Positions 27,814 to 42,136 of a stretch of 64,000 nt of DNA are shown piece by piece. This stretch comes from Candidatus Kapaibacterium sp. (GTDB lineage Bacteria > Bacteroidota > Ignavibacteria > Kapaibacteriales > UBA2268). Within the stretch, counting starts at the first letter, position 1. Each line of letters starts with the position of its first letter. The notes below the pieces were generated by a model. That model was given only the letters and a program-made list of their open reading frames with translations, was not told the DNA's origin and did no database searches. The stretch lies in the NCBI GenBank assembly GCA_963665665.1, contig OY762428.1, forward strand, positions 2,688,001 through 2,752,000. Reading direction: 5' to 3'. A program made the position numbers and the translations under genes.

Positions 27814-28419
27814 ATGATCAATATTATGATAACTAAAATAATAGACCACTTTGAAAGTAACAACGGATATGGAAAGCTCAAGGAAATGAAAAGCGAACAT
27901 ATTCATACCAGAGCCATATCAAAAGCTGTCGAAAACGGAGAAATAATAAAAATTAAACCAGGACTTTATAAACTTATAGATTATAGATGGGATGACCTTA
28001 GTTCGTTCAGGGATATTTGTATGGCTAATAACAAGGCTGTAATATGCCTTACATCGGCTGCTGCCTATCACGGTCTTACTACTTTTCTTCCTTCTCGAAT
28101 AAATATCGCAACGCCTCATAACAGCATAAAATTCAAACTGGAATATCCAGTGCTAAAACAATTCTATTTTTCGCCAATACAATATAATACCGGAATAGAA
28201 ATCATAGAAACATCTTCCGGAAATTTTAAAATTTATTCAAAGGAAAAAACTATTGTTGATCTTTTTAGATACAGAAATAAAATCGGGGAAGATATCTTTT
28301 ACGAATCTCTAAAAAATTATATGAATGGTAAAAACAACATTAATGAATTTATTGAAATCTCTACAAAATTGCGAGTAAAAAATAAAATCCTTCCATTAAT
28401 AAAAGTATTGGCAATATGA
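27814..28419 (+). CDS. abiEi: Type IV TA antitoxin, AbiEi family
   Basis: Winged-HTH N-terminus (GEIIKIKPGLY); AVICLTSAAAYHGLT and IYSKEKTIVDLFRYR; overlaps abiEii. Confidence 0.85.
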   Translation: MINIMITKIIDHFESNNGYGKLKEMKSEHIHTRAISKAVENGEIIKIKPGLYKLIDYRWDDLSSFRDICMANNKAVICLTSAAAYHGLTTFLPSRINIATPHNSIKFKLEYPVLKQFYFSPIQYNTGIEIIETSSGNFKIYSKEKTIVDLFRYRNKIGEDIFYESLKNYMNGKNNINEFIEISTKLRVKNKILPLIKVLAI

Positions 28420-29330
28420 CTGACTATCTCAAAAACAAACCTGCCTCCATAAGGCAAAAACTACTTAATCATGCGAGAAGTAATAATATCGACTTCAACA
28501 TGATTTTGATTCACTACTTTAATGAGAGAATTCTATACAGGCTTTCGAAATCGAAATATTTTGATAATTTTATTTTGAAAGGAGCATTATTACTTCTTGC
28601 AAGCGATATTAGCCTGATTCGGCCCACAAAAGATATTGATTTTCTTGGAATAAATATAAATAATGATATCGAAGCAATTGCAAAAATATTTGCTGAAATT
28701 ATTAATATTGAATGTGATGACGGAATTGTTTTTTATCCGGATAAAGTTGATGGAGAATCGATAAATGATTTTGACCAATACAATGGCGTTAGAATTAAGA
28801 TTGAAGGTTTTCTTGATACTGCCAGGCAAAGGATACAAATTGATATTGGTTTCGGCGACACAATTTTTCCTGATCCTGTAATTATAGATTTTCCAACCAT
28901 TTTGGAATTTGATTCTCCAATTATCAGAGCGTATTCTTATGAAACGGTTATCTCTGAGAAATTCGAGGCAATTGTATCGTTAGGCCTTTCTAACAGCTGT
29001 ATGAAGGATTTTTATGATATTCTTTATCTTGCGTCCAAACATAAATTTAATTCGAGAATATTGAAACTTTCTATTAACGAAACTTTTATAAGAAGGAAAT
29101 CAAACATAGCCGATTTTAAATATGTTTTCAATTCGTCTTTTAAAAATGATCCGGAAAAACAAATATTATGGAAAGTATTTATGACCAGGACGAATTTGCA
29201 AATTGAACAGGATTTTAGTCAAATCATTAATAAAATAGAAATGTTTTTGAAACCAATTTTTAACTTTTCTAATGACATGTACTGGGATTCGGATTCTTTC
29301 AAATGGGTTAATCAAAGAATTACCGAATGA
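28416..29330 (+). CDS. abiEii: Type IV TA toxin, AbiEii nucleotidyltransferase
   Basis: FILKGA, RPTKDIDF, IDIGFGD, EKFEAI and KDFYD motifs. Confidence 0.88.
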   Translation: MTDYLKNKPASIRQKLLNHARSNNIDFNMILIHYFNERILYRLSKSKYFDNFILKGALLLLASDISLIRPTKDIDFLGININNDIEAIAKIFAEIINIECDDGIVFYPDKVDGESINDFDQYNGVRIKIEGFLDTARQRIQIDIGFGDTIFPDPVIIDFPTILEFDSPIIRAYSYETVISEKFEAIVSLGLSNSCMKDFYDILYLASKHKFNSRILKLSINETFIRRKSNIADFKYVFNSSFKNDPEKQILWKVFMTRTNLQIEQDFSQIINKIEMFLKPIFNFSNDMYWDSDSFKWVNQRITE

Positions 29331-29375: not shown

Positions 29376-31703
29376 TCAGAACTTCTTTACAAGGTCCCTG
29401 TCAATAACATATAATGCAATCTGTACTGCACCTTCTTCGGTATAATTGAATTTTTCTACAAGCTGGCTGATCATTCTTTCCGTATCACGGCGCAAACGGG
29501 AATCATAAGCTTTGAAATTATCAGTTCGGTAGTCCTGAAGTGCCCGGCGGAAATTACTGTTCTGAACATAAGGAGCAAGAGCGTTCTCTTTTATCAGCCT
29601 TGTAAATTTCTCAAACATGTTCCGGAATTGGCTTGTGTCACTGATGTCTTTGCCCTTTACGCGAATTTCCTCGGCAAGGGTTCTGGAAACATATTCGGAC
29701 CTGGTTTCCTCGCGGAATTGTTTTCTTCTAACGTCAGAGCTGGTAGTCCCGAGGAACATTGCCTCGAAATTCTTAAAGAAATCTTCGGTTATCTCCAGTT
29801 TTTCCCCGGTGAATTCGCACCTGACTTTGTCTCCTATTTCGAAATTAACGCCATAGATATAATTCAGGATATCCTCTGATATTTGTTCTTCGTTATAATA
29901 GTAAATAGCTTCCTTAACCTGTTGCAGAACGTCATAATCATATTTTCTTACAAGAGAATCAATAAAACCGTCGGGTACTTCTTCAAAATCCTTATCCTTT
30001 TTCTCTTTAAAGAATTCGCTGACGTTATCCATTGTTATCATCTTATCAGATTTGGAATACTTATTAAAGAAAGAACCGAAAACATTAATAGACTGCCTGC
30101 CGGAAAAGCCTTTTCTTCCTTCTGTTCCGGCGCTGTTGATAATCTGCTTGCGTGTATCACGGTCAAATTTCTTTACATCATCCTCAGAAAGCCAGTCAGG
30201 AATAATACCGGTGTAAATATCCATTTTCAGCAGCATGAAATATCTGTCGCAATACTTCGAGTATTTGTCCGGGCTGCCAAGCCATTTCCTGATTGATGGT
30301 GTTTCACGGTCAAGGCGTGAAGAAATAATCACCCGGGCGAAGTTAATAAGTACTCCGGGAAGGAATTTCTCGGGCATATCCTTGCGGAATTTGTTTTTAT
30401 AAATTTTTACTTCCGTATTGTAATCCAGCACATAAGGTATGCAAACAGTAATTATTCTGTCGCGGAAGGATTTAACGTTTTCATAGTGAACCTTATCCTC
30501 GGGGTTTACAAGCCCCATGAATATTGACTTGATCCTTTCCTCGATAAGCTCAACTTTATGCACACCGTCGCTGATAATACCGTGCAGGGATCTAAGTCTT
30601 TCAATATTGTTCTCTTTAATATCCATCAGGGCAAGAACGCCGTTGTTTGTTTTTGAAAGTGCGGAATAAATAAAATTAACATCATCAGTACGCAGAAGAT
30701 TGTTTATCATCCCTTCCAGGTTAGGATTGGTAATAGGCTTCCTGAATATCGGATCCCCCGGATTGAATACGCTGATTCCTTCTCCGAACTGCCTGTTAAA
30801 ACTGAACATTCTGGCATTGATCATTGAAAATACTTCAAGAGGATCCTCAAGAATATCAAGCAAGGTATTGTATATCGAATGGCAGATATTACATGGATTA
30901 TCCCTGAGAACCCATTGATATTCCTTGCTTTGGAATAGTTTTGTTTTAAATTCGCCATCGGGTATAAGTTCGTCAAGGAACTGTGCTCTGAAGCTTTTGG
31001 GAATCTGCAAAATCGGATGGTCATGCCTTGGGCATGAGAACTGAATATACTTCTGATGGTTCAACGGTGATTCAGGATCATCTTTATTAACCACTTCGGT
31101 AATTTCTTCGGCTACTTCCTTATTAGCATGCCTGCCCAGTTTATCGGTAAAATTCCTGAAACCGCCAAGGCGTTCAATATCCAGCCGCCAGTAAGTTTTA
31201 AAAATTGCACCCTCGCGTGTTTTGGTATAGTCTTCCAGTTTTTGAAGAAAATTATTGAGGAATGTACTTTTTCCGCTGCCGGGAGGGCCTTCGAAAAGAA
31301 AAATATGATTATGCAATGACACGGCACGGAACCTGTTTATAAGATTCATCAGCCTGTTTGCAAACAACCTGTCTGCAAAAAAAGGAGAATCACATTCATC
31401 CTCGAAAAGTGCTGATGTGTTGTAATTTTTAAATCCAATATTTTCCGAATGGTCCGGATATTCCTGAATACCTTCCGGAATATAGTGGTGTACCATATCG
31501 TAAAACAATTTAAAAATATCCCTTAGTACATACCCGGGCCGGGTGGAAGTTAAATACAAAAAATCATTGAATGGTATTGGCTGGCGGCGTTCCTTGTCGC
31601 GAAGGTTATTACTTAGGTGAATCAAAGCTTCAAGGCGTCTGCCCCGTTCTTCAAGTTCTTTATAATTCTGAACTCTGATTCTTCTTGTTCCAGACTTTTT
31701 CAT
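29376..31703 (-). CDS. Second PrkA-family AAA+ serine kinase
   Basis: Walker A GPPGSGKST, SCPRHDHP, IPYVLDY.TEVKIY and EGRKGFSGR motifs. Confidence 0.82.
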   Translation of the reverse strand: MKKSGTRRIRVQNYKELEERGRRLEALIHLSNNLRDKERRQPIPFNDFLYLTSTRPGYVLRDIFKLFYDMVHHYIPEGIQEYPDHSENIGFKNYNTSALFEDECDSPFFADRLFANRLMNLINRFRAVSLHNHIFLFEGPPGSGKSTFLNNFLQKLEDYTKTREGAIFKTYWRLDIERLGGFRNFTDKLGRHANKEVAEEITEVVNKDDPESPLNHQKYIQFSCPRHDHPILQIPKSFRAQFLDELIPDGEFKTKLFQSKEYQWVLRDNPCNICHSIYNTLLDILEDPLEVFSMINARMFSFNRQFGEGISVFNPGDPIFRKPITNPNLEGMINNLLRTDDVNFIYSALSKTNNGVLALMDIKENNIERLRSLHGIISDGVHKVELIEERIKSIFMGLVNPEDKVHYENVKSFRDRIITVCIPYVLDYNTEVKIYKNKFRKDMPEKFLPGVLINFARVIISSRLDRETPSIRKWLGSPDKYSKYCDRYFMLLKMDIYTGIIPDWLSEDDVKKFDRDTRKQIINSAGTEGRKGFSGRQSINVFGSFFNKYSKSDKMITMDNVSEFFKEKKDKDFEEVPDGFIDSLVRKYDYDVLQQVKEAIYYYNEEQISEDILNYIYGVNFEIGDKVRCEFTGEKLEITEDFFKNFEAMFLGTTSSDVRRKQFREETRSEYVSRTLAEEIRVKGKDISDTSQFRNMFEKFTRLIKENALAPYVQNSNFRRALQDYRTDNFKAYDSRLRRDTERMISQLVEKFNYTEEGAVQIALYVIDRDLVKKF

Positions 31704-31755
31704 GATATTATCTCTTAAGATTATTTTTTTCAGTTCATAATATTTCTGTATTAGA

Positions 31756-31779
31756 AACGAAAAGAACAGCTAAAAGTTA
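31756..31779 (-). promoter_or_regulatory. Candidate ECF-sigma promoter
   Basis: TAAC-N16-CGTT on the minus strand about 55 nt before the PrkA-like start. Confidence 0.45.
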
Positions 31780-31934
31780 TTTCGGCTAATCAGATATATT
31801 CATTTATTGAAAATACAAATTCTTTTAAATATTTAAAACAATAAAAGAAATAAATTTGTTGAATTTCTAATATTCAGACATCCGGAATCCACTTGATTTA
31901 TAAAGTCGTTATTTTTGATTATTCCAATTCACTC

Positions 31935-32183
31935 CCCGCAGCCCTCGCAGACAATGGCGGGCCTACGCAAACGTTGGCCATCACTGCGGGAAGCTTTGCC
32001 ATCGGCGCCGGATTTCCTGACCTTACAACTGATCAGAGGAATTATCAGAGATTAAATCCTCCAACCATCGGTGCTTATGAATACGGCGCAATTATCCCCA
32101 CGCTCGGCGAATGGGGCGTCATTGCCTTAAGCGTTTTGATGCTTGGCATGGGCGGCTGGTTTGTTTGGAGAAGAATTGTGTAG
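31935..32183 (+). pseudogene. 3' remnant of a choice-of-anchor-Q / IPTL-CTERM surface protein gene
   Basis: LADNGGPTQTLAI..GS.AI..G..TDQR..IGAYE, then IPTLGEWG, a TM helix and RR; no signal peptide or N-terminal body. Confidence 0.75.
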
Positions 32184-32711
32184 TACAATAGCAACTTTAT
32201 TATTATTACAATTGCCACGGCTTTAAGTCGTGGTTTTTTTATCCTTCTACTGTACATTAGTAAGCTAATATCTTTCCTTTTAATAGCATATATTAGAAAA
32301 TTATTTTTAATAACTCAACTTCCCGAGTTAAGTAAACCTATGGATAATAACATGCTAAGTATTAACAAATAATCGTATTTAAAGTTGCCCCACCCCTTTT
32401 TATTTCGTATATGGCAAATAGTGTCTATTTCGCTCAAAGTCCCACATTCTGTCGCGGCAAAGCGCCCGGGGCATTTCCGCCCCCGTCCGATGGAAATTAT
32501 GTGCCTTTGGAGTCTCAAACATGCCGGGCATAGCAAACCCTAATATTTAAAAACCAAATATTCACCCGGCAAAAGCAAACAGAGGCCCTTTCGGATCAAA
32601 ACATTGATTGAATATAGGGATCGAACGGACTAATAGAACGAAATTCTATATCAAAAAAGTGAAACTCTGTCTTTTCTGAGTAAAATTTTACCTGAAAAAA
32701 TGTTTTTGGAA

Positions 32712-33131
32712 GCACAAACCAACGCTAAAATGACACAAACCAAGGCTAAGACGACACGAACCAAGGCTAAGATGACACGAACCAACGCTAAGACGACACA
32801 AACCAAGGCTAAGACGTAACATGCCAAGACTAAGACGACACATACCAAGGCTAAGATAACACAAACCAAGGCTAAGATGACACGAACCAACGTTAAGACG
32901 GCACATCCCAACGCTAAGATGACATATATCAGCGATAATCAGGCTCTGGAGAAAGCTCGGGAAACACGAGGGAACGCTCGGAAAGCTTGGGGGAACGCTC
33001 GGGAAGCTCGGGGGAACGCTCGGAAAGCACGAGGGAACGCTCGGAAAGCTTGAGGGAAAGCTCGGAAAGCATGAGGGAACGCTCGGCAGGCACGGGGTAA
33101 TGCTCGGGAAGCTCGGGGGAACGCTCGGGAA
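32712..33131. repeat. 21-bp tandem repeat array with two consensus blocks
   Basis: 10 units of acacaaaccaaggctaagayg, one transitional unit, then 9 units of gcacgagggaacgctcggaaa-like sequence; 420 bp = 20 x 21. Confidence 0.9.
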
Positions 33132-33626
33132 GCATAAAACAGCGGGTTTCCGGCGCAGAAAATTGTTTCCAAAGAACATACAAACGGTATTAATGCCAAT
33201 AATATCATACATTTACATCAACAAAATCCTGTTTAGCAGAATTCCTATAGGGTGATGGCCCGCACCGCCGAAATATAATTACATCAGGGCGCTGATTTCT
33301 CCAAATTTGTTTGTTTTAAAGGCCCGGAGAATTATATAATTATTCTGCCGGATGGGGCAGGAATGATGAAATTTAAAAAAACACCCGCCAAATTAATTAT
33401 TCAATAGATATTGTGAGCTATTGAAAATTATATTAATTTGGCGAAAAGAATAATTTGGACGCTCTATAATGATCTATGATACTATCCAAAATATTGATCA
33501 CGGGGATGAACCCCAAAGGAAACTTTGGAAATTAATTCCCCAGCAATCGGCAGTGTATTTACTCTCAGGATTAGTCGGCATTGTTCTGCTTGCAAATGAA
33601 ATACAGAAACAGCTCGAGGGTGAAAT

Positions 33627-34118
33627 ATGAGTAATGAGATTATTTTCTATCAACCGGAAAAGGACTTTACAAAATTAGAAGTCATTATTGAAGATGAAAC
33701 CGTTTGGCTTTCACAGGCACAAATGTCAGATTTGTTTCAAACAACAAGAAACAATATTACACTGCATATATCAAACATTTTCAAAGAAGGCGAATTAAAA
33801 AAAGATATGGTATGTAAGGATTCCTTACTAACCACTCAACACGGTGCCATCAAAGGGAAATTACAGACCCGGAAAATAAAGATTTACAATCTTGATGCTG
33901 TATTATTTCGATGGGAATTTTTAGAAGAGGTGTTAAGCATTATTAGCAATATACACTCCCTTCAATATAATTATGATGATCTAAGTTATGAGCAATGGGA
34001 AGAACTGCGCCAATTTTTAGTTACTGGTGGAACAACTATTAAAAAGGAAACCCCTCATGAAAAAACTACTCTTAATCTTAATACTACCCCTCCTCTTCTC
34101 CTGTTCGGAGGAGGATGA
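33627..34118 (+). pseudogene. Truncated RhuM-family protein fused to unrelated sequence
   Basis: EIIFYQ, ETVWLSQAQMSDLF, ITLHISNIFKEGEL and YNLD match RhuM; similarity stops near 33900, where ISVGYRV is expected. Confidence 0.7.
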
Positions 34119-34836
34119 CGGACCATGGACACCATGCAAACCGATTTCAGACCTCGAAATTCCAAAGATAAAAGACTCAGACGTGATAATTCGCCACCTT
34201 GGATACACCCTATCCTATAACGAGCAACATGAACAGGCAAACTGGGTAGCCTACGTACTGACAAAGGAGGAACTCCAGGGGACAGTAGAAAGAACTGATG
34301 ACTTCCGTCCTGATCCGGATTGCCCGGAGGGATCTGCCGATGATGATGACTATGCGGGTTCTGGATATGACCGGGGACATCTTGCTCCTGCAGCCGATAT
34401 GGCTTGGAGCGAAACTGCGATGTCGGAATCTTTCTTCTATTCAAATATGTCGCCACAGGATCCCAGTTTCAAACGGGGAATATGGAAGAGGGTAGAGGAG
34501 GAGGTGAGAGGTATGCTTGATTACTGTGATAGCGTTTACGTCATCACTGGCCCTGTCCTGCGTGACGGACTACCAACTATAGGCCCTAATAATGTTAGTG
34601 TTCCGGAATATTATTTCAAAGTATTATGGATGTTCCGAGATTGTGAGTATTTAGAAATGGGGGTATTTCTGCTTAAGAACGAGAAAAACGACAGAGACGA
34701 ATGGCGCTATGTAAAAACTGTGGATTCTATCGAGGCTTTGACCGGAATTGATTTCTTCTATAAGCTTCCGGATGATATTGAAGACAAGATGGAAAGTGAA
34801 ACCTGGCAGGTGCCGGTAGATAGGATTGGGAAGTAG
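34057..34836 (+). CDS. Lipoprotein DNA/RNA non-specific endonuclease (NucA family)
   Basis: Lipobox LFSC; ANWVAY, YDRGHLAPAAD, SNMSPQ and VPEYYFKV motifs. Confidence 0.9.
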   Translation: MKKLLLILILPLLFSCSEEDDGPWTPCKPISDLEIPKIKDSDVIIRHLGYTLSYNEQHEQANWVAYVLTKEELQGTVERTDDFRPDPDCPEGSADDDDYAGSGYDRGHLAPAADMAWSETAMSESFFYSNMSPQDPSFKRGIWKRVEEEVRGMLDYCDSVYVITGPVLRDGLPTIGPNNVSVPEYYFKVLWMFRDCEYLEMGVFLLKNEKNDRDEWRYVKTVDSIEALTGIDFFYKLPDDIEDKMESETWQVPVDRIGK

Positions 34837-34933
34837 GAGCTAACGTCGGTATTACCGAGGTTAGGTAAGGGGTGAACGAAATGGGAACCCCTTTAATTAG
34901 GATAAAAATTATACTTTGAATATTGGAGTAAAG

Positions 34934-35125
34934 ATGTACGAATACAAGACAGAAATTGTTAAAAGAAAAAACTACAATTTTGAAAATCGTAGTATGAAAG
35001 AAAACAATCTTGAAGTAATCTTAAACAGAGAAGCCAAAGATGGCTTTGAATTCGACAAATCAATAAATATTTCCGAGAAAGAATGGATACTGATATTCAG
35101 GAAAGAAGTTAAAGAAGAAATTTAA
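34934..35125 (+). CDS. DUF4177-like small protein
   Basis: MYEYK...LEVILN.EAKDGFE...LIFRKE pattern. Confidence 0.65.
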   Translation: MYEYKTEIVKRKNYNFENRSMKENNLEVILNREAKDGFEFDKSINISEKEWILIFRKEVKEEI

Positions 35126-35168
35126 AGACAGTATTGACCACTACTCCCCGGCCACGCCGGGGATATTT

Positions 35169-38100
35169 CTACTCTTCCCCCTCAACAATTTTAATCTCTT
35201 CTTCCGTCAGGCCGTAGAGTTCATAGACCATCTGATCGATTTCTTTGTCGGTGCGGTCAATGATTTCTTTGATTGCCATGGCTTCTTTTTTTTTGGTTTT
35301 AAAAATTTCCATCCATTCCATTTCATCTAATTTGGAAAGTTTATTTCCAGAAGATTTTTTAACAGATTTATTTAATTCTTTAATGAAGTCTGAAAATTCT
35401 AATTTGTCCCAGTTTTTAAGTTTTTCCGATAATTTTATGTTAGTAAATGAACTCATTAAAAAAATTGTCAATATTTCAATTTTGCTGATATACTTACTTT
35501 GTAAATCTTGATATTGTTCTGATAATTTTGTGATTTTTGTATCAATATTTTTCGGCAAAGGTATTTTCTCTAAAAATTTATTTAAATATGAATAGTATCC
35601 GCCTTGTTTTTTTGTACTTATGGAATGCATGAAAAATTCAACAACTTTAGAATTTAAAAGTGCCAGAAGATAATTACTATCAATTTTATTTTGAACTAAT
35701 CCAAATACTCCAGCCCCTCCACATAAATATGTCATGCCTTTTTTATCTATAGCAAATCTATTCTCTTTACTAATACCAGGTGTCAATATTTTCATCGATC
35801 TAAATAAATCAAGTTTACCTTTTCTTATAAGTTTGTACCAATCAGATGAATTTGATAAGTTCTTTCGTGAATCCTTTCGCTTTTCCAGACTTTCCTTATA
35901 CTTCAGTAGGTAGGAATATGCATTAGGGAATTTTATTCTAAATTGATCTTCTGAAATCAATCTTGTTTCATTTTCAATAAGTTCATAAGGATAAATAACA
36001 TAATCTAAATTATCACTTACATATCCTCTTTTTAAATTTCGTCCTCTTACTACTGGTAATGTTATTCCCTTTTCAATATTATTATCAATATAATCTTGTT
36101 CAGTTAGAATAAATACTGAATCTAAACCAGATGTTAAACCAGTACAAGGATTTGCTATTTCTTTAAGTCTAATACAATTAGACTGTATCTTTGCTAATAT
36201 ATCTCGTTTTTTGGTATTTGAAAACACCCAAACATCATCTGATAATTCAGAAGGATCCATAAGTGTTGGTTTACTTGAATAAAGTTGCTCGGCACCAACT
36301 TTTGATAGCAGCCTATAATTAAATTGTTTAGCTTTCGAATTTTCAATAAGAATTACACCGGGGTAAGTTGTAGCTCCTTCAAACACTGCCAATCCATTAT
36401 AGTCAATAAATTCTATAATTCTTTTTGTTAAAAGAAAACCTCTAATTTTTCTACCATATTCAGCATTTAAAAATTGAATAGTAGTTATGTATGAAAGTAA
36501 GCCATTCTCTTTTAATTCCTTAATACCCTTTTCAAAAAACAATAAAGATATATCAATTCTTTTATGTGCAACAGAATAATTAGTTTTATAATAATCTATT
36601 TCTGAATAGTTTAAATTCTGTACCCTTACATACGGCGGATTACCAATAACAACATCAAAACCGCCCTTGTATTGGGGGCGAAATGCATTTTCCGGCAGGG
36701 TAAGAAATTCTTTTTTAATTTTATCTATCTCCCTGTTTTCCGGCATATTATGCTTAATACGGTTATCGCGTATATATTTAATAGTATTATATAAATGCTC
36801 TTCGCCGCTTATCTCGTTCTTTCCGTACTTCTGCGTCCACAGCTTGGTCTGCGTTACTCCTCTCGCCGTGGCCTTAGTTCCCTCCGAAGCTTCCGAACGG
36901 GAAGAAGATAGGGACGACGACCCGGGGGCGGACAGGGGACTATAGGAAGGGCTACTACCGGCGGGAAGATTCTCGGAGGAGAGACTACTCTCGGGTAGGG
37001 GATTCTCGGATAGAGGATTCTCGGAGAGAGGGTTCTCGGATAGAGGATTCTCGGAGAGAGGGTTCTCGGAGGTACTACCGGCGGGGAGACTACCCTCGGA
37101 TAGAGGACTTCCGGATAGGGGATTCTCGGAAGGGAGGGGATTCTCGGATAGAGGACTTCCGGATAGGGGATTCTCGGAAGGGAGGGGATTCTCGGATAGA
37201 CAAGGGGGCATGCCCCCTTGTCTACTATTAGATAGAGAGGAGAAAGAAGAAGAAAAAGAAGAGGAGGAAGTAGTAGTAGAAGAAGTACTACTCTTACTCG
37301 TTCCCGTCTCTTCCCCGCGTCTTTCGGCCTCCGTTCCGCTCGCGCGTTTTCCCGTCTCTTCTCCGCGTCTTTCGCTTCGGCTTTTCGGTATAGTATATCC
37401 TCTATCTATATTTCTTGCCCTCGAGCTTACGGATTTTATCTTTCCGACTATTTTCGATGTTTCTTCTGCCTCGCAAACTAATAGTAAATGGAGATGATCG
37501 CCGCATATATTATATTCTATTACTGTCAGGCCGTCTTCCTTAACGATTTTGGATATTGCCTTAGTTATTATTATCTCGTCTTCTTCGTCAATCCATTCTG
37601 CTTCCCCTGTTGCCACTTTATAATCGCGCATTCGTTCCGAATAACGGGAATTATGCGTTGCCGTGGTAATATGCCAGGCTTTCATATTTTTTTTAACGAA
37701 TACATCCGGGAACTCCTTCTCCCATTTAAAAGCTTTCTCTCCTGCAACTTCCGGATCATCAATAAGGGAATTACCACATTTAATCTTTGTATTCAGGGCA
37801 GACAGCTTCCTGCCTTTCTTCGCCGTCCTCAGCCAAAGAGACAACTTAGCGATCTCTACGGCTTCCTCGTTAATATCAACGCCATAGAGATTGTTTTCGA
37901 GAATATTGTTTTCAATTTCAGTGAAGACAATACCTTCGTTGAGCATAGATGATCTAAGTTTATCTATGTAGTGATGTTCCTCAATCAGGAATTCCAGTGC
38001 CTGATTTAAGAAAGCGCCGCTGCCACATGCAGGATCGCAAATAGTAACCCCGAGAAGCCATTCCCTGTATTCCTTCAGTTTATCATCAAGCTTTACAAGA

Positions 38101-39353
38101 GTTTCGCGCCTCCGGCCTTTTCGGTCACGCTCATATTCTTCATCAATAATACCCAGTTCTTCCTTCTTTTCAGCACAGAGCTTGCCGACAGTATTATCGA
38201 CAATGTATTTTGTAATATACTTGGGCGTATAATAAACCCCGTCCTTTTTCCTTTTGCTCGTTTGAGATTTAAAGTCCTCTCCCTTTATCTCGGCCTGCAA
38301 TTCCTCAATCTCATTAAGGCTATGCTCAAATATATGGCCGAGAATATTAACGTCAACATCAGTGTCGAAATCGTAAGAAGAAAGATTCACGGTATCTTTT
38401 AGCAATATTTCATCGTCAATTATCAGTCTTTCCAATATCTCATCCGGTTTGAAAAGCTCCCCGTTATAACCATTGAAGTTAACTCTCGGGCTTTTATACC
38501 CAACATCGATATAATTGAAGAATTTTATAAAGATATTGAATAATGGCTGATAGGCATCCAGTTCCTTCAGCTGATTATAATCCTCAACAATCCTTGATAT
38601 AATATTCGGCGGAATCAGCCCCTTATCCTCGGCAAAGAAAATAAACAGCAGCCTGTCGAGTATTTTTTGTGATTTCTTCAGGAGCAAAAGTTTGTCATGC
38701 TCCGGATTGTTTTTTACAAGGTTGTTGAATATCTTTTTCTTGAATTCAGAATAATCCTTATAAAGTTTCTTAGATATATTCTCTTCATGGAGCTTGGAAT
38801 CCTGCTTTATCTTCAATGGTATATCAGAGAGGATGTTTTCCCTGCAAAGATACAAATAGAAAAGCCTGAAACGCTCCTCGGTCATTTCGAAAAGGTTAAA
38901 CTCTTCATGTTCTGTAGCATCTTCAATATAGAACCAAAGCCTTTCGAAATTGGATGTAATTACATATTTACAGCCCGGCTGATGGTTCTTGTAGTTGAAT
39001 GCCTGAGTTTTAACATCATCAAGATTCTTTGTTTTCGTTGATTTCAGTTCGATTACACCAATAGCTGTTCCATCTTTCAAGATAGCGCCGTCGGCTTTCT
39101 TGGCATCATCAAGGTTTTTATACTCTGTAGTCAGGTTATAATTCGGATCGGGATTGATTGTGTAGCCAAGAATATTTACAAATATATCCCGCAGGAATCC
39201 TTCCTGATATTGCTCCTCCTTGGACTGAATAATATTCTGGATACGTTCTGAATTAGAATAATGATCCTTGAAAGCCTGATATTTTTCTTTAACAATTGTA
39301 TCATCGATATTCGAAAGATACTTATTTACAACAGATTTCTGGTAAAGAGCCAT
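35169..39353 (-). CDS. Type IIG (Eco57I-like) restriction-modification enzyme with in-frame HUH transposase-domain insertion
   Basis: N-terminal PD-(D/E)xK (ADG..IELK); GVYYTP; DPACGSG (aa ~440); NPPY (aa ~905); TaqI-C-like TRD; IDQMVYELYGLTEEEI tail. Confidence 0.92.
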   Translation of the reverse strand: MALYQKSVVNKYLSNIDDTIVKEKYQAFKDHYSNSERIQNIIQSKEEQYQEGFLRDIFVNILGYTINPDPNYNLTTEYKNLDDAKKADGAILKDGTAIGVIELKSTKTKNLDDVKTQAFNYKNHQPGCKYVITSNFERLWFYIEDATEHEEFNLFEMTEERFRLFYLYLCRENILSDIPLKIKQDSKLHEENISKKLYKDYSEFKKKIFNNLVKNNPEHDKLLLLKKSQKILDRLLFIFFAEDKGLIPPNIISRIVEDYNQLKELDAYQPLFNIFIKFFNYIDVGYKSPRVNFNGYNGELFKPDEILERLIIDDEILLKDTVNLSSYDFDTDVDVNILGHIFEHSLNEIEELQAEIKGEDFKSQTSKRKKDGVYYTPKYITKYIVDNTVGKLCAEKKEELGIIDEEYERDRKGRRRETLVKLDDKLKEYREWLLGVTICDPACGSGAFLNQALEFLIEEHHYIDKLRSSMLNEGIVFTEIENNILENNLYGVDINEEAVEIAKLSLWLRTAKKGRKLSALNTKIKCGNSLIDDPEVAGEKAFKWEKEFPDVFVKKNMKAWHITTATHNSRYSERMRDYKVATGEAEWIDEEDEIIITKAISKIVKEDGLTVIEYNICGDHLHLLLVCEAEETSKIVGKIKSVSSRARNIDRGYTIPKSRSERRGEETGKRASGTEAERRGEETGTSKSSTSSTTTSSSSFSSSFSSLSNSRQGGMPPCLSENPLPSENPLSGSPLSENPLPSENPLSGSPLSEGSLPAGSTSENPLSENPLSENPLSENPLSENPLPESSLSSENLPAGSSPSYSPLSAPGSSSLSSSRSEASEGTKATARGVTQTKLWTQKYGKNEISGEEHLYNTIKYIRDNRIKHNMPENREIDKIKKEFLTLPENAFRPQYKGGFDVVIGNPPYVRVQNLNYSEIDYYKTNYSVAHKRIDISLLFFEKGIKELKENGLLSYITTIQFLNAEYGRKIRGFLLTKRIIEFIDYNGLAVFEGATTYPGVILIENSKAKQFNYRLLSKVGAEQLYSSKPTLMDPSELSDDVWVFSNTKKRDILAKIQSNCIRLKEIANPCTGLTSGLDSVFILTEQDYIDNNIEKGITLPVVRGRNLKRGYVSDNLDYVIYPYELIENETRLISEDQFRIKFPNAYSYLLKYKESLEKRKDSRKNLSNSSDWYKLIRKGKLDLFRSMKILTPGISKENRFAIDKKGMTYLCGGAGVFGLVQNKIDSNYLLALLNSKVVEFFMHSISTKKQGGYYSYLNKFLEKIPLPKNIDTKITKLSEQYQDLQSKYISKIEILTIFLMSSFTNIKLSEKLKNWDKLEFSDFIKELNKSVKKSSGNKLSKLDEMEWMEIFKTKKKEAMAIKEIIDRTDKEIDQMVYELYGLTEEEIKIVEGEE
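36669..37697 (-). mobile_element. In-frame RAYT/IS200-like Y1 transposase domain with internal palindrome
   Basis: WHITTAT, YNICGDHLHLLL (HUH) and LWTQKY..I.GEEHLYNTIKYIRDNRIKH, lying between EFPDVF and KGGFDVVIGNPPY. Confidence 0.82.
37197..37224. repeat. Perfect 28-bp palindrome (GTAG-type REP-like)
   Basis: tagacaagggggcatgcccccttgtcta equals its own reverse complement; the minus strand reads GTAG from 37225. Confidence 0.85.
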
Positions 39354-39856
39354 AGTAGTAATACTTAATTATTGTTCAACCAACGAACCGTAATATACAC
39401 ACAAAATAGAATTATTTAAAGTGTTTAAAAAGGATTTTTTTTGAAATTAAGAGATAGAATCAATATCAAAATCCCCCCCTACCCCATCTCCTTTTTCAGC
39501 TGTTCTGCTATTTCGCGCCAGAGATATTCGCCTTCGATATTCTTATCGATGAATTCACGGCAGAAATAATACCTCGCACCAGCGGATGTCGTACATGTAA
39601 AAGTAGTATTGCTTTGTCCATTTGCCCTTTGGTGTAGATAAATATTTTGCCATATATTGGAAAAGCTCCCGGTCGCTGACAGAAAACTTTTTACCGAAAA
39701 TATCCGAAAAATTCCTGAAAAGCCGCTACCTGGAATCAAATTTGTCCGAAGAAAAAGAGCAACCCGTTTCTTTGCATCCCGACATTAAAAACGGCAGGCT
39801 GAAGATTGCTTAGGAAGGGGGGATTATCATGGGGATGAAAAGAAGTTTTTCCGGCA

Positions 39857-40726
39857 ATGGGAGTAAGGCCGCTTAAAACAACTTTCGTAAACCTGATAGA
39901 ATCCAATTTTTCAGAAATTCTCTGCAACCTGCAAATCGAACATGATAACATTGACGAGATAGACTGGGCATTCAGCAAAGAGCGGCAGACATTTATAATT
40001 AACGTCCGGAATAAAGATAGAGCAAATATTGTTTTGGAACATCCTGTTTCACTGACGATAGAAAATAATCTGACAACAGTGTTCTCAGAAAACAAACCCG
40101 GCCTTGTTTACGTATCAGGGCAAAATATCGACCGACTTGTTTCCATTTACAAAGCCAGTCAGAAGGCAGGAAAAACTCTGGTCGTTGATGTTTATATAGC
40201 AAAAATTCTGAAGACGCTTTCTGAGTACAACAAATTTCCTTTCCCGAATAATTCGTATAATATCAAGGTTTGGTTTACGAAGTACGTTTGCGACCGCCTG
40301 GCCAGAATTAAAAGAAAAGATATACTCTATGAGTTCGCCGGATACAAGATCAGCAAATATGAAATTAACATGCAGCCGTCTGAATATGTTATCCTTACAC
40401 GCCCGTCACAGATAGTTGATATGGAGAAAATACCAAATCTGAAGCTTGGTAATTTCATATATTCATTATGGGAAGGCTATAAAAACAATCCCGACACAAT
40501 AAAATTGCTGGACTGGATACGGAAAAGGAAATTCACCGAACACAATATCCACACCAGCGGACATGCCGATCAGGAATCACTTTTGTGTTTTGTTAATGCT
40601 TTCAATCCCAGATATATCATTCCAATCCATACCTTGCAGAAAAATAAGTACAGCAGTATTTTCACGCAGAATGTTATAAATCTTCAGGATGGAGAGAGTC
40701 TGGAGTTGTCGGATTTTTTGGGTTGA
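39857..40726 (+). pseudogene. C-terminal half of an MBL/beta-CASP (RNase J-like) hydrolase
   Basis: QNIDRLVSIYKA, YSLWEGY, IHTSGHAD and IIPIHT are present; the N-terminal HxHxDH motif is absent. Confidence 0.7.
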
Positions 40727-40874
40727 TAATGTAAAACGGTACGAGACCATTAGCATTGTTGAAATTTGAAATGCCAAAAATTGATTTATTAATATTAATT
40801 GTTTAAATTGTTATTAATAATGAACAGATTAGTTTTTTGATAAATTCGACTCATTTCCATAAGGAATATTTTAT

Positions 40875-41786
40875 ATGAATGAAATTGAATACCAGGAATA
40901 TAAATATGAAAACGGTAAACTTTCTAATCAACCATCTTTGATAAGTTCAATGGAATATGATACATATCAGATTTTAAATAAATTTGAAGACGAAAAAGCT
41001 ACTGTTTATTATCCAAAATCAAATATTAAAGTCCAGAAATTCTATTTTCCGAGTGGCCAACCGGCATATTTTATTGTATTAACATTCAACGAACAAGGAA
41101 ATGTTATTAGCAGTATAAAATATGATGGTCAATTAGTTTCTGATAATGAAATTGATTTCGAAAATCCTGATTATTATTTTTCAAAACCCGAAAATCAGTT
41201 TGAAAAAATTGATGTAAGCAAAAAAAATTCAAAAGGAGAACCATATTACCAGGTATTTAAAAGTTTCAAGGAGATATATCATAGTTGCTATAATATTGAA
41301 GAAAAGAAAGTTATTGAAAAAGAGGAAAATGGTAAACCAAAAATTGAAATATGGTACGATGATAATATTTTTGATAGGTTGGTGTGTTATTCCTATTTTG
41401 AAGACAAGCTTGTAAAAGAAGAACATTATAATATTGATATGCAACTATTTGAATCAATTATTTATAGTTACAACTCTAAAGGCTTTATTTCCTGCGTAAA
41501 TATCTATAGTGAATTCAACAGAGAGAAATATCTCCTAAAATATCATTCTTCAAAATATCTTAAAAAAATTATTAGTTTAAGCGATAATCAACCTTCATAT
41601 GATACTCAATATAAATTTAATTCAGAGAATCAAATAATAGCACGATCTGTTCAAAATATTGATAAAATTATAATTGAAAAGCAACTATTCGAATATAACG
41701 ATCGCTATCAATTAATAAAAATGATTGAATTTGATGAATTTAATGAACCTTATAAAACGACTATTTTTGATGTAGAATATTTGTAG
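40875..41786 (+). CDS. Very AT-rich hypothetical protein with YD/RHS-like beta repeats
   Basis: Recurrent Y.Y..(N/D)G motifs; 303-aa open frame. Confidence 0.6.
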   Translation: MNEIEYQEYKYENGKLSNQPSLISSMEYDTYQILNKFEDEKATVYYPKSNIKVQKFYFPSGQPAYFIVLTFNEQGNVISSIKYDGQLVSDNEIDFENPDYYFSKPENQFEKIDVSKKNSKGEPYYQVFKSFKEIYHSCYNIEEKKVIEKEENGKPKIEIWYDDNIFDRLVCYSYFEDKLVKEEHYNIDMQLFESIIYSYNSKGFISCVNIYSEFNREKYLLKYHSSKYLKKIISLSDNQPSYDTQYKFNSENQIIARSVQNIDKIIIEKQLFEYNDRYQLIKMIEFDEFNEPYKTTIFDVEYL

Positions 41787-42136
41787 GTATGCAAAAAGAA
41801 ATCTGCAAAACTCTCACTTTTCCCACCAAAACAATCCCCAAACCATCAATTTTCTTACCATTTTGGTTGGAAAACTTAGAATTTTGGTGTCGTCAACTTG
41901 TTTTTTGAACTTTTTCAAACATTTCTGACACTGTGAGGCTTTCATTTCGTTTGACCTCGTAAAATTTCGTAAAATTTCGTAACTATACATTACTGTACAA
42001 ATATATAAAGTATCATCTGAATGCAGTCGTAAAAAATAAGCTTACAGGCAGTTCTATGATGGGAAAAATCAGCCATATTATTATGTTTTGGGACATTTTC
42101 CTGACCTGGAAGTGATATTTTACTGCCCAATCCTTG

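Follow-up and report, generated by a model that had tools for sequence, protein, structure and literature searches.

Repetitive extragenic palindromes (REPs) and the REP-associated tyrosine transposases (RAYTs, or TnpAREP) found with them, together termed REPtrons, are the described systems closest to the element reported here, especially those of TnpAY1 subclass 2.4, which corresponds to RAYT group 4 (in the available part of PMC6006769). The element lies in a 64,000-nucleotide (nt) stretch of a Candidatus Kapaibacterium sp. genome (contig OY762428.1, positions 2,688,001 to 2,752,000), the whole of which we call the window and number from its first letter. Here, one open reading frame (ORF) of 1394 residues, P0001 (35169..39353, minus strand), is predicted to encode a single-chain type IIG restriction-modification (R-M) enzyme with a Y1/HUH cassette nested in frame inside its methyltransferase. 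Like a REPtron, the cassette has the Y1 HUH fold, is present in one copy per genome and has a cognate palindrome tied to its gene, and its tyrosine motif (YIRNN) resembles the YIxNNP of subclass 2.4 in the same part of that source. Unlike a REPtron, it is nested in another gene without a start, stop or promoter of its own. Its DH[ML]H and LW[TA]QK (LWTQK) motifs are class-1-like by the table of PMC6006769, within the part available, and its tyrosine motif (YIRNNRIKH) ends R-x-K-H and not in the P given there for subclass 2.4. The window genome also differs in having no amplified REP family, and the GT[AG]G tag is found at two of ten palindromes.

The TnpA transposases of the IS200/IS605 family (IS608 and ISDra2; PDB IDs: 2a6m, 2vjv and 2xm3) share the fold of the cassette and give its best sequence-level matches among solved structures, and the HUH and W motifs of the cassette are of the class-1 type. 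In contrast to IS200/IS605 elements, the cassette has neither hairpins near both ends, nor multiple copies, nor tnpB, and it is translated within a host protein. Small in-frame hairpin repeats in tolerant loops of functional proteins are known as intragenic REPs, which Di Nocera et al. 2013 describe as read in frame inside genes (PMC3733652, available in part), and as Rickettsia palindromic elements. These are short repeats only, whereas here a putative acting enzyme is also in frame in the same gene. The words ‘methyl’, ‘fused’ and ‘chimeric’ have no occurrences in the main text of PMC3733652, and unexpectedly long fusion proteins were discarded by Quentin et al. 2018, according to the available part of PMC6006769. 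In a literature judged mainly by title and abstract, we found no published description of a Y1/HUH domain inside an R-M enzyme.

The host shares its predicted domain order, on one polypeptide, with the MmeI/Eco57I-type type IIG (IIL) enzymes, along with Eco57I, MmeI_Mtase and TaqI_C matches. It differs from them in bearing the Y1 cassette, and its family differs in a natural, wholesale exchange of the C-terminal half at methyltransferase motif IV; the nearest solved chains by plain sequence search are M.BseCI and BrxX/PglX, not MmeI. On balance, we consider it probable that this gene carries a RAYT/REP-like unit, made up of a Y1 enzyme and its palindrome, which is nested in frame 5' of motif IV and rides a mosaic, recombining R-M gene.

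A Y1/HUH cassette within a type IIG enzyme

The cassette comprises residues 553–896 (344 residues; 36666..37697, minus strand), between EFPDVF and the motif IV sequence GGFDVVIGNPPY, and has three parts. The N-terminal part of the Y1 core (residues 553–664; 37362..37697, minus strand) contains the first β-strand, WHITTAT (37656-37676), a helix, and the β-strands with the HUH motif, which reads DHLHLLL (residues 619–625) and sits on a β-strand (DHLH, residues 619–622, 37488-37499; HLH, 37488-37496). Between this HUH core and the tyrosine helix is a disordered, low-complexity linker (residues 665–832; 36858..37361, minus strand) that holds tandem repeats and the palindrome. The C-terminal part (residues 833–896; 36666..36857, minus strand) consists of LWTQKYG, the tyrosine helix YIRDNRIKH (YIRDNR, residues 860–865; Tyr860, 36774-36776) and a tail ending in AFRPQYK.

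The Pfam family Y1_Tnp (PF01797) matches the insert alone with 42.1 bits and the whole protein with 35.8 bits (cut-off 23), where the match spans only profile positions 18–79 of 121 (residues 586–646), the domain being divided by the linker. A profile of 22 inserts found ISDra2 TnpA (2xm3) with E = 6e-5 and IS608 TnpA with E = 1e-3. An AlphaFold2 model of the 167-residue insert from the relative L007, which shares 40% identity with the window insert, had a predicted local distance difference test score (pLDDT) of 92.8 and a predicted TM-score (pTM) of 0.87. All 30 matches of this model in a Foldseek search of the PDB (E ≤ 1e-3) were Y1 transposases (4er8, 2xm3, 2vjv, 2a6m, 2f4f and 2ec2), with 4er8 at the top, a probability of 1.00 and a target-normalised TM-score of up to 0.69. 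For the window protein itself, a model of residues 321–1008 gave pLDDT means per ten-residue block of mostly 83–97 for both Y1 halves: two blocks of the N-terminal part were at 71–78 and the remainder at 83–97, and the C-terminal part was at 92–97 over the strand and the tyrosine helix, falling toward the tail. Tyr860 lies within helix H531-542 of this model, and the 168 linker residues (model residues 345–512) have a pLDDT below 50, as expected for disorder.

Sixteen columns are invariant in 22 of 22 aligned inserts (H, T, R, N, D-H-x-H, C, K, L-W, N, Y, N and K-H), despite the 30–62% identity of nearly all inserts to the first row (one row, 87%). Across 123 inserts with a median identity of 57%, the HUH motif is kept in every one (122 by regular expression, with the remaining P0245 reading DHVHA), as is the tyrosine motif. 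The models show the cassette as a complete, self-contained and confidently folding RAYT-like Y1 module with intact HUH and tyrosine motifs, in which Tyr860 would be the catalytic residue. To judge by its sequence, the insert belongs to the Y1 HUH superfamily and fits no named subclass.

The profile match above its cut-off, the Y1 identity of all 30 structural matches of a homologous insert, and the kept motifs bear out the initial annotation of this DNA, which had proposed from the letters alone a Y1/HUH domain of RAYT/IS200 type in frame in a type IIG methyltransferase. Its coordinates for the HUH motif and the tyrosine proved exact, while the insert it had outlined (residues ~553–895, 36669-37697) was correctly located, its 36669 being one ambiguous codon off. 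It had also seen no intein termini, and we agree: the insert starts VKKNMK and ends RPQYK, with QYK directly before GG, and is without intein splice-junction residues, and no Hint or intein family is among the Pfam families listed for the protein. The cassette is like inteins and homing endonuclease genes in being a selfish-looking in-frame module that some close alleles have and others lack, at a fixed site adjoining the most conserved catalytic motif. It differs from them in having neither a Hint domain nor splice residues, in giving no hint of its removal from the protein, and in having a nuclease of the Y1 HUH type.

The linker contains tandem units of 15 and 48 nt at 36989-37200, read as SENPL..., and an AAG run at 37244-37285, read as a Ser/Phe-rich stretch; within the window genome, the SENPL-type repeat is confined to this gene. 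Repeat copy number over 36989-37285 differs between the window and its nearest relative: organism B shows a gap of 78 nt along with small indels, and the protein P0002 has other repeat blocks. The flexible loop between the HUH core and the tyrosine helix is seen to take up both the palindrome and this strain-specific tandem repeat.

Logan contigs of runs X1 and X3 have 0 differences to the window over both insert/host junctions (35100-37032 and 37171-39400), and these short-read assemblies break solely inside the internal tandem repeat (37011-37200), although the two runs may be the genome's own source sample. No RNA run that contains the locus is among the ten runs listed. A chimeric assembly, which the initial annotation had named as a possible refutation, is argued against independently because the layout recurs in hundreds of proteins from other sources.

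The host appears from its sequence to be an intact single-chain enzyme of the Eco57I/MmeI-like type IIG class, and its frame runs over all 1394 residues with neither stop nor frameshift, as first described. A putative PD-ExK nuclease is followed by a helical spacer, a gamma-type N6-adenine methyltransferase and a TaqI_C-type recognition domain, and the Pfam matches above cut-off are Eco57I (139.1 bits, cut-off 25.3), N6_Mtase (55, cut-off 20.4), MmeI_Mtase (47.2, cut-off 27) and TaqI_C (50.1, cut-off 26.5), the last marking the C-terminal recognition domain at residues 1100–1266 (35556-36056). The putative N-terminal PD-(D/E)XK nuclease region (residues 35–163; 38865..39251, minus strand) has D88...E102-L-K104, seen in ADGAILKDGTAIGVIELKS. 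It matches MmeI_N (21.5 bits, cut-off 27) and HSDR_N_2 (19.3 bits, cut-off 25) below threshold, MmeI_hel also matches the host N terminus weakly and under threshold, and the D...ELK columns are at least 90% conserved in 65 homologues. The N lobe of the methyltransferase (residues 423–552; 37698..38087, minus strand; MmeI_Mtase and N6_Mtase) contains motif I, DPACGSG (38016-38036), and ends with EFPDVF (residues 547–552; 37698-37715) as the left cassette border. Motif IV (residues 897–908; 36630..36665, minus strand), with its NPPY kept in the host methyltransferase, is the right border. The nuclease motif, DPACGSG and NPPY are thus all present, as the initial annotation had stated. The protein scored 108 bits (cut-off 500) and 106 bits (cut-off 400) with the NCBIfam models of PglX, the methyltransferase of bacteriophage exclusion (BREX) systems, and no BREX genes were found among the neighbours scanned.

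Empty sites and the mosaic host gene

A search with residues 540–910 found 532 proteins of 766–2440 residues that share the arrangement (E ≤ 1e-3), and 117 of the best 120 of these matches carry PF01797 together with type IIG domains. Their current source names are ‘N-6 DNA methylase’, ‘transposase’ or ‘RayT’. Within the phylum, seven of 401 sampled genomes, including that of the window, have the Y1 domain, and always in open frames of 1197–1399 residues. With only the flank (residues 321–552) as the query, matches were found in 28 genomes of the same sample and in 19 of 216 genomes of a further, one-family sample.

The relatives that could be parsed from these two samples number 33, of which nine are occupied and 24 are empty. 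In the insert-free homologues, the empty site is seamless and reads EFPxVF-xx-GGFDVVIGNPPY (VF-xx-GGFD), with two residues in between, which is the direct junction that the initial annotation had held to be normal. The insertion point is constant to the codon, directly 5' of motif IV. Empty alleles are 64–73% identical to the window enzyme in the flank and are as close to it as the occupied alleles are. When the empty allele P0179 was used as the query, its second-best matches were occupied and 86% identical over the N-terminal half, with the nearest empty relative at 75%. In these comparisons the cassette is shown as an optional, exchangeable module, and it does not appear to be a fixed part of the enzyme.

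We compared the histories of insert and host, as had been suggested at the outset, on a tree of the host part of 207 full-length proteins (123 occupied and 84 empty). The insert state changes at least 26 times on this tree, as against a mean of 65 (range 55–76) for shuffled labels, and it differs between hosts that are up to 93% identical and between N flanks that are 96% identical. Across the 123 occupied proteins, the identity of the host does not correlate with that of the insert (Pearson 0.16, Spearman −0.02). For example, P0074 and P0230 share 91% identity in the host and 42.5% in the insert, and P0061 and P0062 share 51% and 80%, respectively. In six listed pairs, similar flanks on both sides (N 0.85–0.94, C 0.93–0.95) enclose inserts that are only 0.43–0.52 identical. 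Where the inserts are more than 0.85 identical, the N flank is near-identical in 91% of 45 pairs and the C-terminal half is often unrelated. The far N terminus co-varies with the 200 residues before the insert (r = 0.85), whereas neither N-terminal part tracks the insert or the 140 residues after motif IV (r = 0.19). From these identities, the history of the cassette appears independent of both host halves, and the R-M family proves to be a mosaic of three modules with their joint in the motif IV DNA. Crossovers in two conserved flanks could yield all of these patterns, which therefore show the cassette to be exchangeable, not self-moving.

The mosaic was most evident against the closest relative. 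P0001 and P0002 are 96–100% identical in each 50-residue block over residues 1–900, the repeat linker excepted, and 8–40% identical past NPPY to about residue 1345, with the last 45 residues at 91%. The exchanged module (35292..36629, minus strand) holds the C lobe of the methyltransferase and the TaqI_C-type recognition domain, and is bounded by motif IV as the left breakpoint and a conserved C-terminal tail (35169..35291, minus strand) as the right. In organism B (runs X4 and X5), a contig correspondingly matches the window from 36629 onward and over 35174-35291, and 1208 unrelated nt replace 35292-36628. The GC content of the C-terminal half is 0.268, compared with 0.383 for the N-terminal half and 0.389 for the window; together with the unrelated 1208-nt module of the nearest relative, this low GC content points to a recent exchange of the specificity module.

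The 36 nt of motif IV DNA (36630-36665) are uniform among 25 related loci (including L029-L071), with a mean pairwise identity of 0.91, compared with 0.78 and 0.76 for two other invariant motifs, and a third-position entropy of 0.68 bits, compared with 1.36 and 1.31. Alleles diverge directly 3' of this DNA, as expected of a recombination joint. These alignments show a mosaic host gene, whose C-terminal half is exchanged with one joint in the motif IV DNA and the other at the conserved 3' tail. The mosaic gene, like the linker palindrome described below, goes beyond the initial annotation.

That annotation had suggested that the insert could drive exchange of the specificity half next to it. 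Such exchange is real, with its joint exactly at motif IV. In a first set, close pairs (N flank ≥ 0.90) had unrelated C-terminal halves in 54 of 79 insert pairs and in two of 52 insert-free pairs, the latter gathered with a full-length query and biased to similar C-terminal halves. In the sample gathered by the N flank only, for which 31 of the 33 parsed loci were usable, swapped halves (N ≥ 0.85, C-terminal half < 50%) were found in 17 of 18 empty pairs, two of three insert pairs and 11 of 12 mixed pairs. Since empty alleles swap equally often in this sample, we rejected the Y1 insert as the driver of the swap as unsupported.

Searching 1.84 billion representatives with a profile gave 1120 proteins with E ≤ 1e-3, of which 185 had E ≤ 1e-30. 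The best 150 matches yielded 96 parsed proteins (40 embedded, 45 solo and 11 unclear), with 54 dropped because they were unmatched by the motif patterns; solo denotes stand-alone-looking proteins of 150–250 residues that have a Met shortly ahead of the first strand. Embedded and solo forms are interleaved on a tree of the 85 classed representatives, with 21 changes against a shuffled mean of 28.5, at least six of them forced by well-supported branches. Short frames were found in two of 15 loci examined, and genuine-looking solo relatives exist among the representatives. Stand-alone copies as proof of an autonomous gene were rejected, on the grounds that the 181-residue P0130, in locus L014, has the exact insert borders followed by decayed motif IV DNA and is a relic; since relics occur among the solo forms, how many of the changes are true transitions is uncertain. 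At L014 (5305-6546), this relic cassette is cut down to exactly the insert, and no type IIG gene is left. To judge by their translations, two small genes adjoining it may form a toxin-antitoxin pair of the Phd/YefM-YoeB type. Elsewhere in the window genome, Y1_Tnp matches just one further open frame, which is single-copy and 155 residues long (L003; C1:1821817-1822161), with a full-length hit of the IS200 type (75.7 bits).

The palindrome of the cassette

The disordered linker contains a perfect 28-nt palindrome, TAGACAAGGGGGCATGCCCCCTTGTCTA (37197..37224), which is read as SRQGGMPPCL and lies 477 and 535 nt from the cassette ends. Folded as single-stranded DNA, it has an energy of −12.7 kcal/mol (z = −6.3). 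It belongs to a family, ACAAGGGG...CCCCTTGT, of the form ACAA(G/T)GGG...CCC(C/A)TTGT with arms of 10–15 nt, of which at least one copy is present in 18 of 18 occupied loci with DNA, either between the HUH core and the W motif or past the tyrosine helix. Across loci the palindromes are read in all three frames, and their pairing is kept by paired changes, for example ACAATGGGG...CCCCATTGT in place of ACAAGGGGA...TCCCCTTGT. One locus translates the palindrome as TRGHVPLS and another translates identical DNA as NKGTCPLV, which identifies the nucleic acid, not the peptide, as what is conserved. The foot of the palindrome reads ACAA...TTGT and not GT[AG]G.

A degenerate pattern of the family matched five of five cassette genomes, with 0 matches for a reversed control pattern, and it matched none of five genomes of the same family with an empty allele. 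Four of the cassette genomes have one or two copies each: three of these have every copy inside the gene, and the fourth, G032, has one in the cassette and one ~1.6 kb away on the same contig. The fifth, G064, has 33 copies. Here, the 19 copies fetched are intergenic and form palindromic repeats of ~120 nt with a tip identical to the cassette hairpin; at least 33 such repeats (e.g. L082-L100) are present, with extended stems and inverted outer arms. This genome has 15 Y1_Tnp matches, and none of the eight stand-alone Y1 gene regions examined in it holds the palindrome. The palindrome family has been shown only where the cassette is, and is seen to have spread into other host loops and, in one genome, genome-wide. 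Peptides of the palindrome type were found in host sequence outside the insert in 37 of 123 occupied proteins and in one of 84 empty ones. In locus L024, the palindrome-derived TTRGHAPLS replaces the usual IDDPEVAGDKAF loop just upstream of EFPQVF, so that the hairpin has spread to another loop of the host.

Three other identities for the window palindrome were considered and rejected. As a genome-wide REP of the window genome it was dismissed on finding one copy and two unrelated matches to a looser pattern; as an intrinsic terminator, because it was not called by a terminator scan and no T run follows it; and as a known RNA, because Rfam gave 0 matches in 30000-42000.

Readings of the nested cassette

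The cassette would best be understood as a REPtron-like selfish or semi-selfish unit for which the host gene supplies the promoter, ribosome-binding site and stop. It would be made as part of the R-M protein, would act on the hairpins of its own palindrome in single-stranded DNA, cutting and rejoining them through Tyr860, and would spread between genomes by riding a horizontally mobile, recombining R-M gene. Cassettes would enter and leave alleles by recombination in the conserved flanks and not by self-transposition. The steps that we infer are the cutting of hairpins by the domain, the selfish rather than useful nature of the unit, and the change of alleles by recombination rather than transposition.

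Several observations weigh against this reading. The NCBIfam RAYT model NF047646 (REP_Tyr_transpos) gave 44.1 bits (cut-off 80) and NF033573 (transpos_IS200) gave 28.8 bits (cut-off 55), neither reaching its cut-off, and the profile of 22 inserts matched Escherichia coli TnpAREP (4er8) with a non-significant E = 0.21. The cassette is single-copy in the window genome, with no second copy in another gene, and the palindrome is likewise single-copy in this 5.46-Mb genome, with no amplification; one cassette and one palindrome give no sign of recent activity there. The GT[AG]G tag of REPs was found in the 14-nt flanks of only two of the ten palindromes caught by the pattern. The contrast in palindrome-type peptides between occupied and empty proteins was read from peptide patterns in related sequences that were collected with two different queries. 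Only eight of the Y1 regions of G064 were examined, and another enzyme may move its 33 repeats. That this domain cuts the palindrome is something we infer from sequence, recombination alone can give independent histories without implying any activity of the module, and the invariant catalytic residues fit a host-beneficial domain equally well.

A host-beneficial domain is the reading to consider next, in which the R-M enzyme recruited the Y1 module as an accessory for defence. Such a module might nick or covalently trap single-stranded DNA or the hairpins of single-stranded DNA phages, conjugating plasmids or rolling-circle replicons, or might anchor the enzyme at replication forks through hairpins there, with the palindromes as by-products or regulatory sites. 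It would account for catalytic motifs that persist in 123 of 123 inserts at a median identity of 57%, for a wide and always intact distribution (532 proteins, and seven genomes with open frames of 1197–1399 residues), for the defence-type neighbours of the gene (AbiEi/AbiEii, a PrkA-like protein and a non-specific endonuclease), and for a cassette that is single-copy in each genome, as part of a host gene would be. However, only nine of the 33 parsed relatives are occupied, and hosts up to 93–96% identical do without the cassette, which suggests that the host enzyme has no need of it. Different insert lineages in near-identical hosts are the behaviour of a replaceable passenger, and the conservation of the palindrome as DNA, whatever its reading frame, argues for a substrate on which the element acts in cis. 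We therefore consider domestication unlikely. The initial annotation had offered either an in-frame passenger or a domesticated nickase, and our results lean to the former (the cassette is optional, with its own history, catalytic residues and hairpin) and disfavour the latter.

Less probable again is a non-splicing, in-frame ‘homing’ transposon, which would be a mobile element of a new kind and in which the Y1 enzyme, made within the host protein, inserts the cassette at, and precisely excises it from, the motif IV DNA of type IIG genes. We give slightly less credence still to the version in which the enzyme moves the whole cassette as single-stranded DNA in the manner of IS200/IS605 into the empty site adjoining the motif IV DNA, in frame and without target duplication, with precise excision possible. 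A self-inserting element would explain a site that is fixed to the codon directly 5' of the most uniform DNA of the family (motif IV, 0.91 compared with 0.78 and 0.76) and the seamless empty sites, and the interleaving of embedded and solo forms in the tree of 85 Y1 representatives (21 changes, at least six forced) would fit repeated entries. Some cassettes also have a palindrome 50–80 nt from the right end, yet there is no hairpin near the left end, and the commonest place for the palindrome is mid-cassette, 300–480 nt from either end. There is one copy per genome and none in another gene, the solo class of the tree is impure, given that the ‘stand-alone’ copy at L014 is a relic, and flank recombination accounts for all observed gains, losses and replacements in a host gene that demonstrably recombines there. 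Finally, an inert relic or mere spacer, that is, an old insertion tolerated in a surface loop with no activity left, would suit a loop that tolerates 168 disordered residues and changes of repeat length, as well as the single-copy cassette and palindrome of the window genome, but is very improbable given the HUH motif and tyrosine in 123 of 123 inserts, the 16 columns invariant in 22 of 22 despite 30–62% identity, and palindrome pairing maintained through paired changes.

Among the neighbours of the gene are an AbiEi/AbiEii pair, a PrkA-like protein, a secreted-type non-specific endonuclease and an RMMBL fragment, with housekeeping genes farther out. The defence-type genes are located at 27814-29330 (an AbiEi-like antitoxin, by a weak match, and the AbiEii toxin), 29376-31703 (the PrkA-like kinase/AAA protein) and 34027-34836 (the DNA/RNA non-specific endonuclease, the translation of which may, by eye, carry a lipoprotein-type signal). 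Two adjoining arrays of 21-nt tandem repeats (32713-32924, 10.1 copies, and 32951-33134, 8.8 copies) have a 63-nt super-period and lie between the PrkA-like gene and an ORF at 33627. This region (32713-33135) is open in three overlapping minus-strand frames, the longest ORF is without a Pfam match, and the sequence is unrelated to the repeats inside the insert.

RAYTs with their hairpin repeats, and short in-frame intragenic repeats, were known. A RAYT/REP-like unit nested in an R-M gene would represent a different way of life for a mobile or domesticated element, in which a whole hairpin transposase is carried in frame in an enzyme and its putative substrate hairpin lies in its own coding sequence. 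Such a cassette would need no expression signals of its own, simple gene inactivation could not remove it without killing the host gene, and it would travel with a gene class known for horizontal spread. If the ‘homing’ alternative were true, a selfish, horizontally mobile gene would serve as both the expression platform and the vehicle. Natural pairs of occupied and empty alleles at 93–96% host identity are suited to testing the role of RAYT-type enzymes, an open question since their description. For annotation, the present names of these fusion proteins are inconsistent, and the three-module build of the family, with its joint in the motif IV DNA, matters for the prediction of specificity from sequence and for the engineering of type IIG enzymes.

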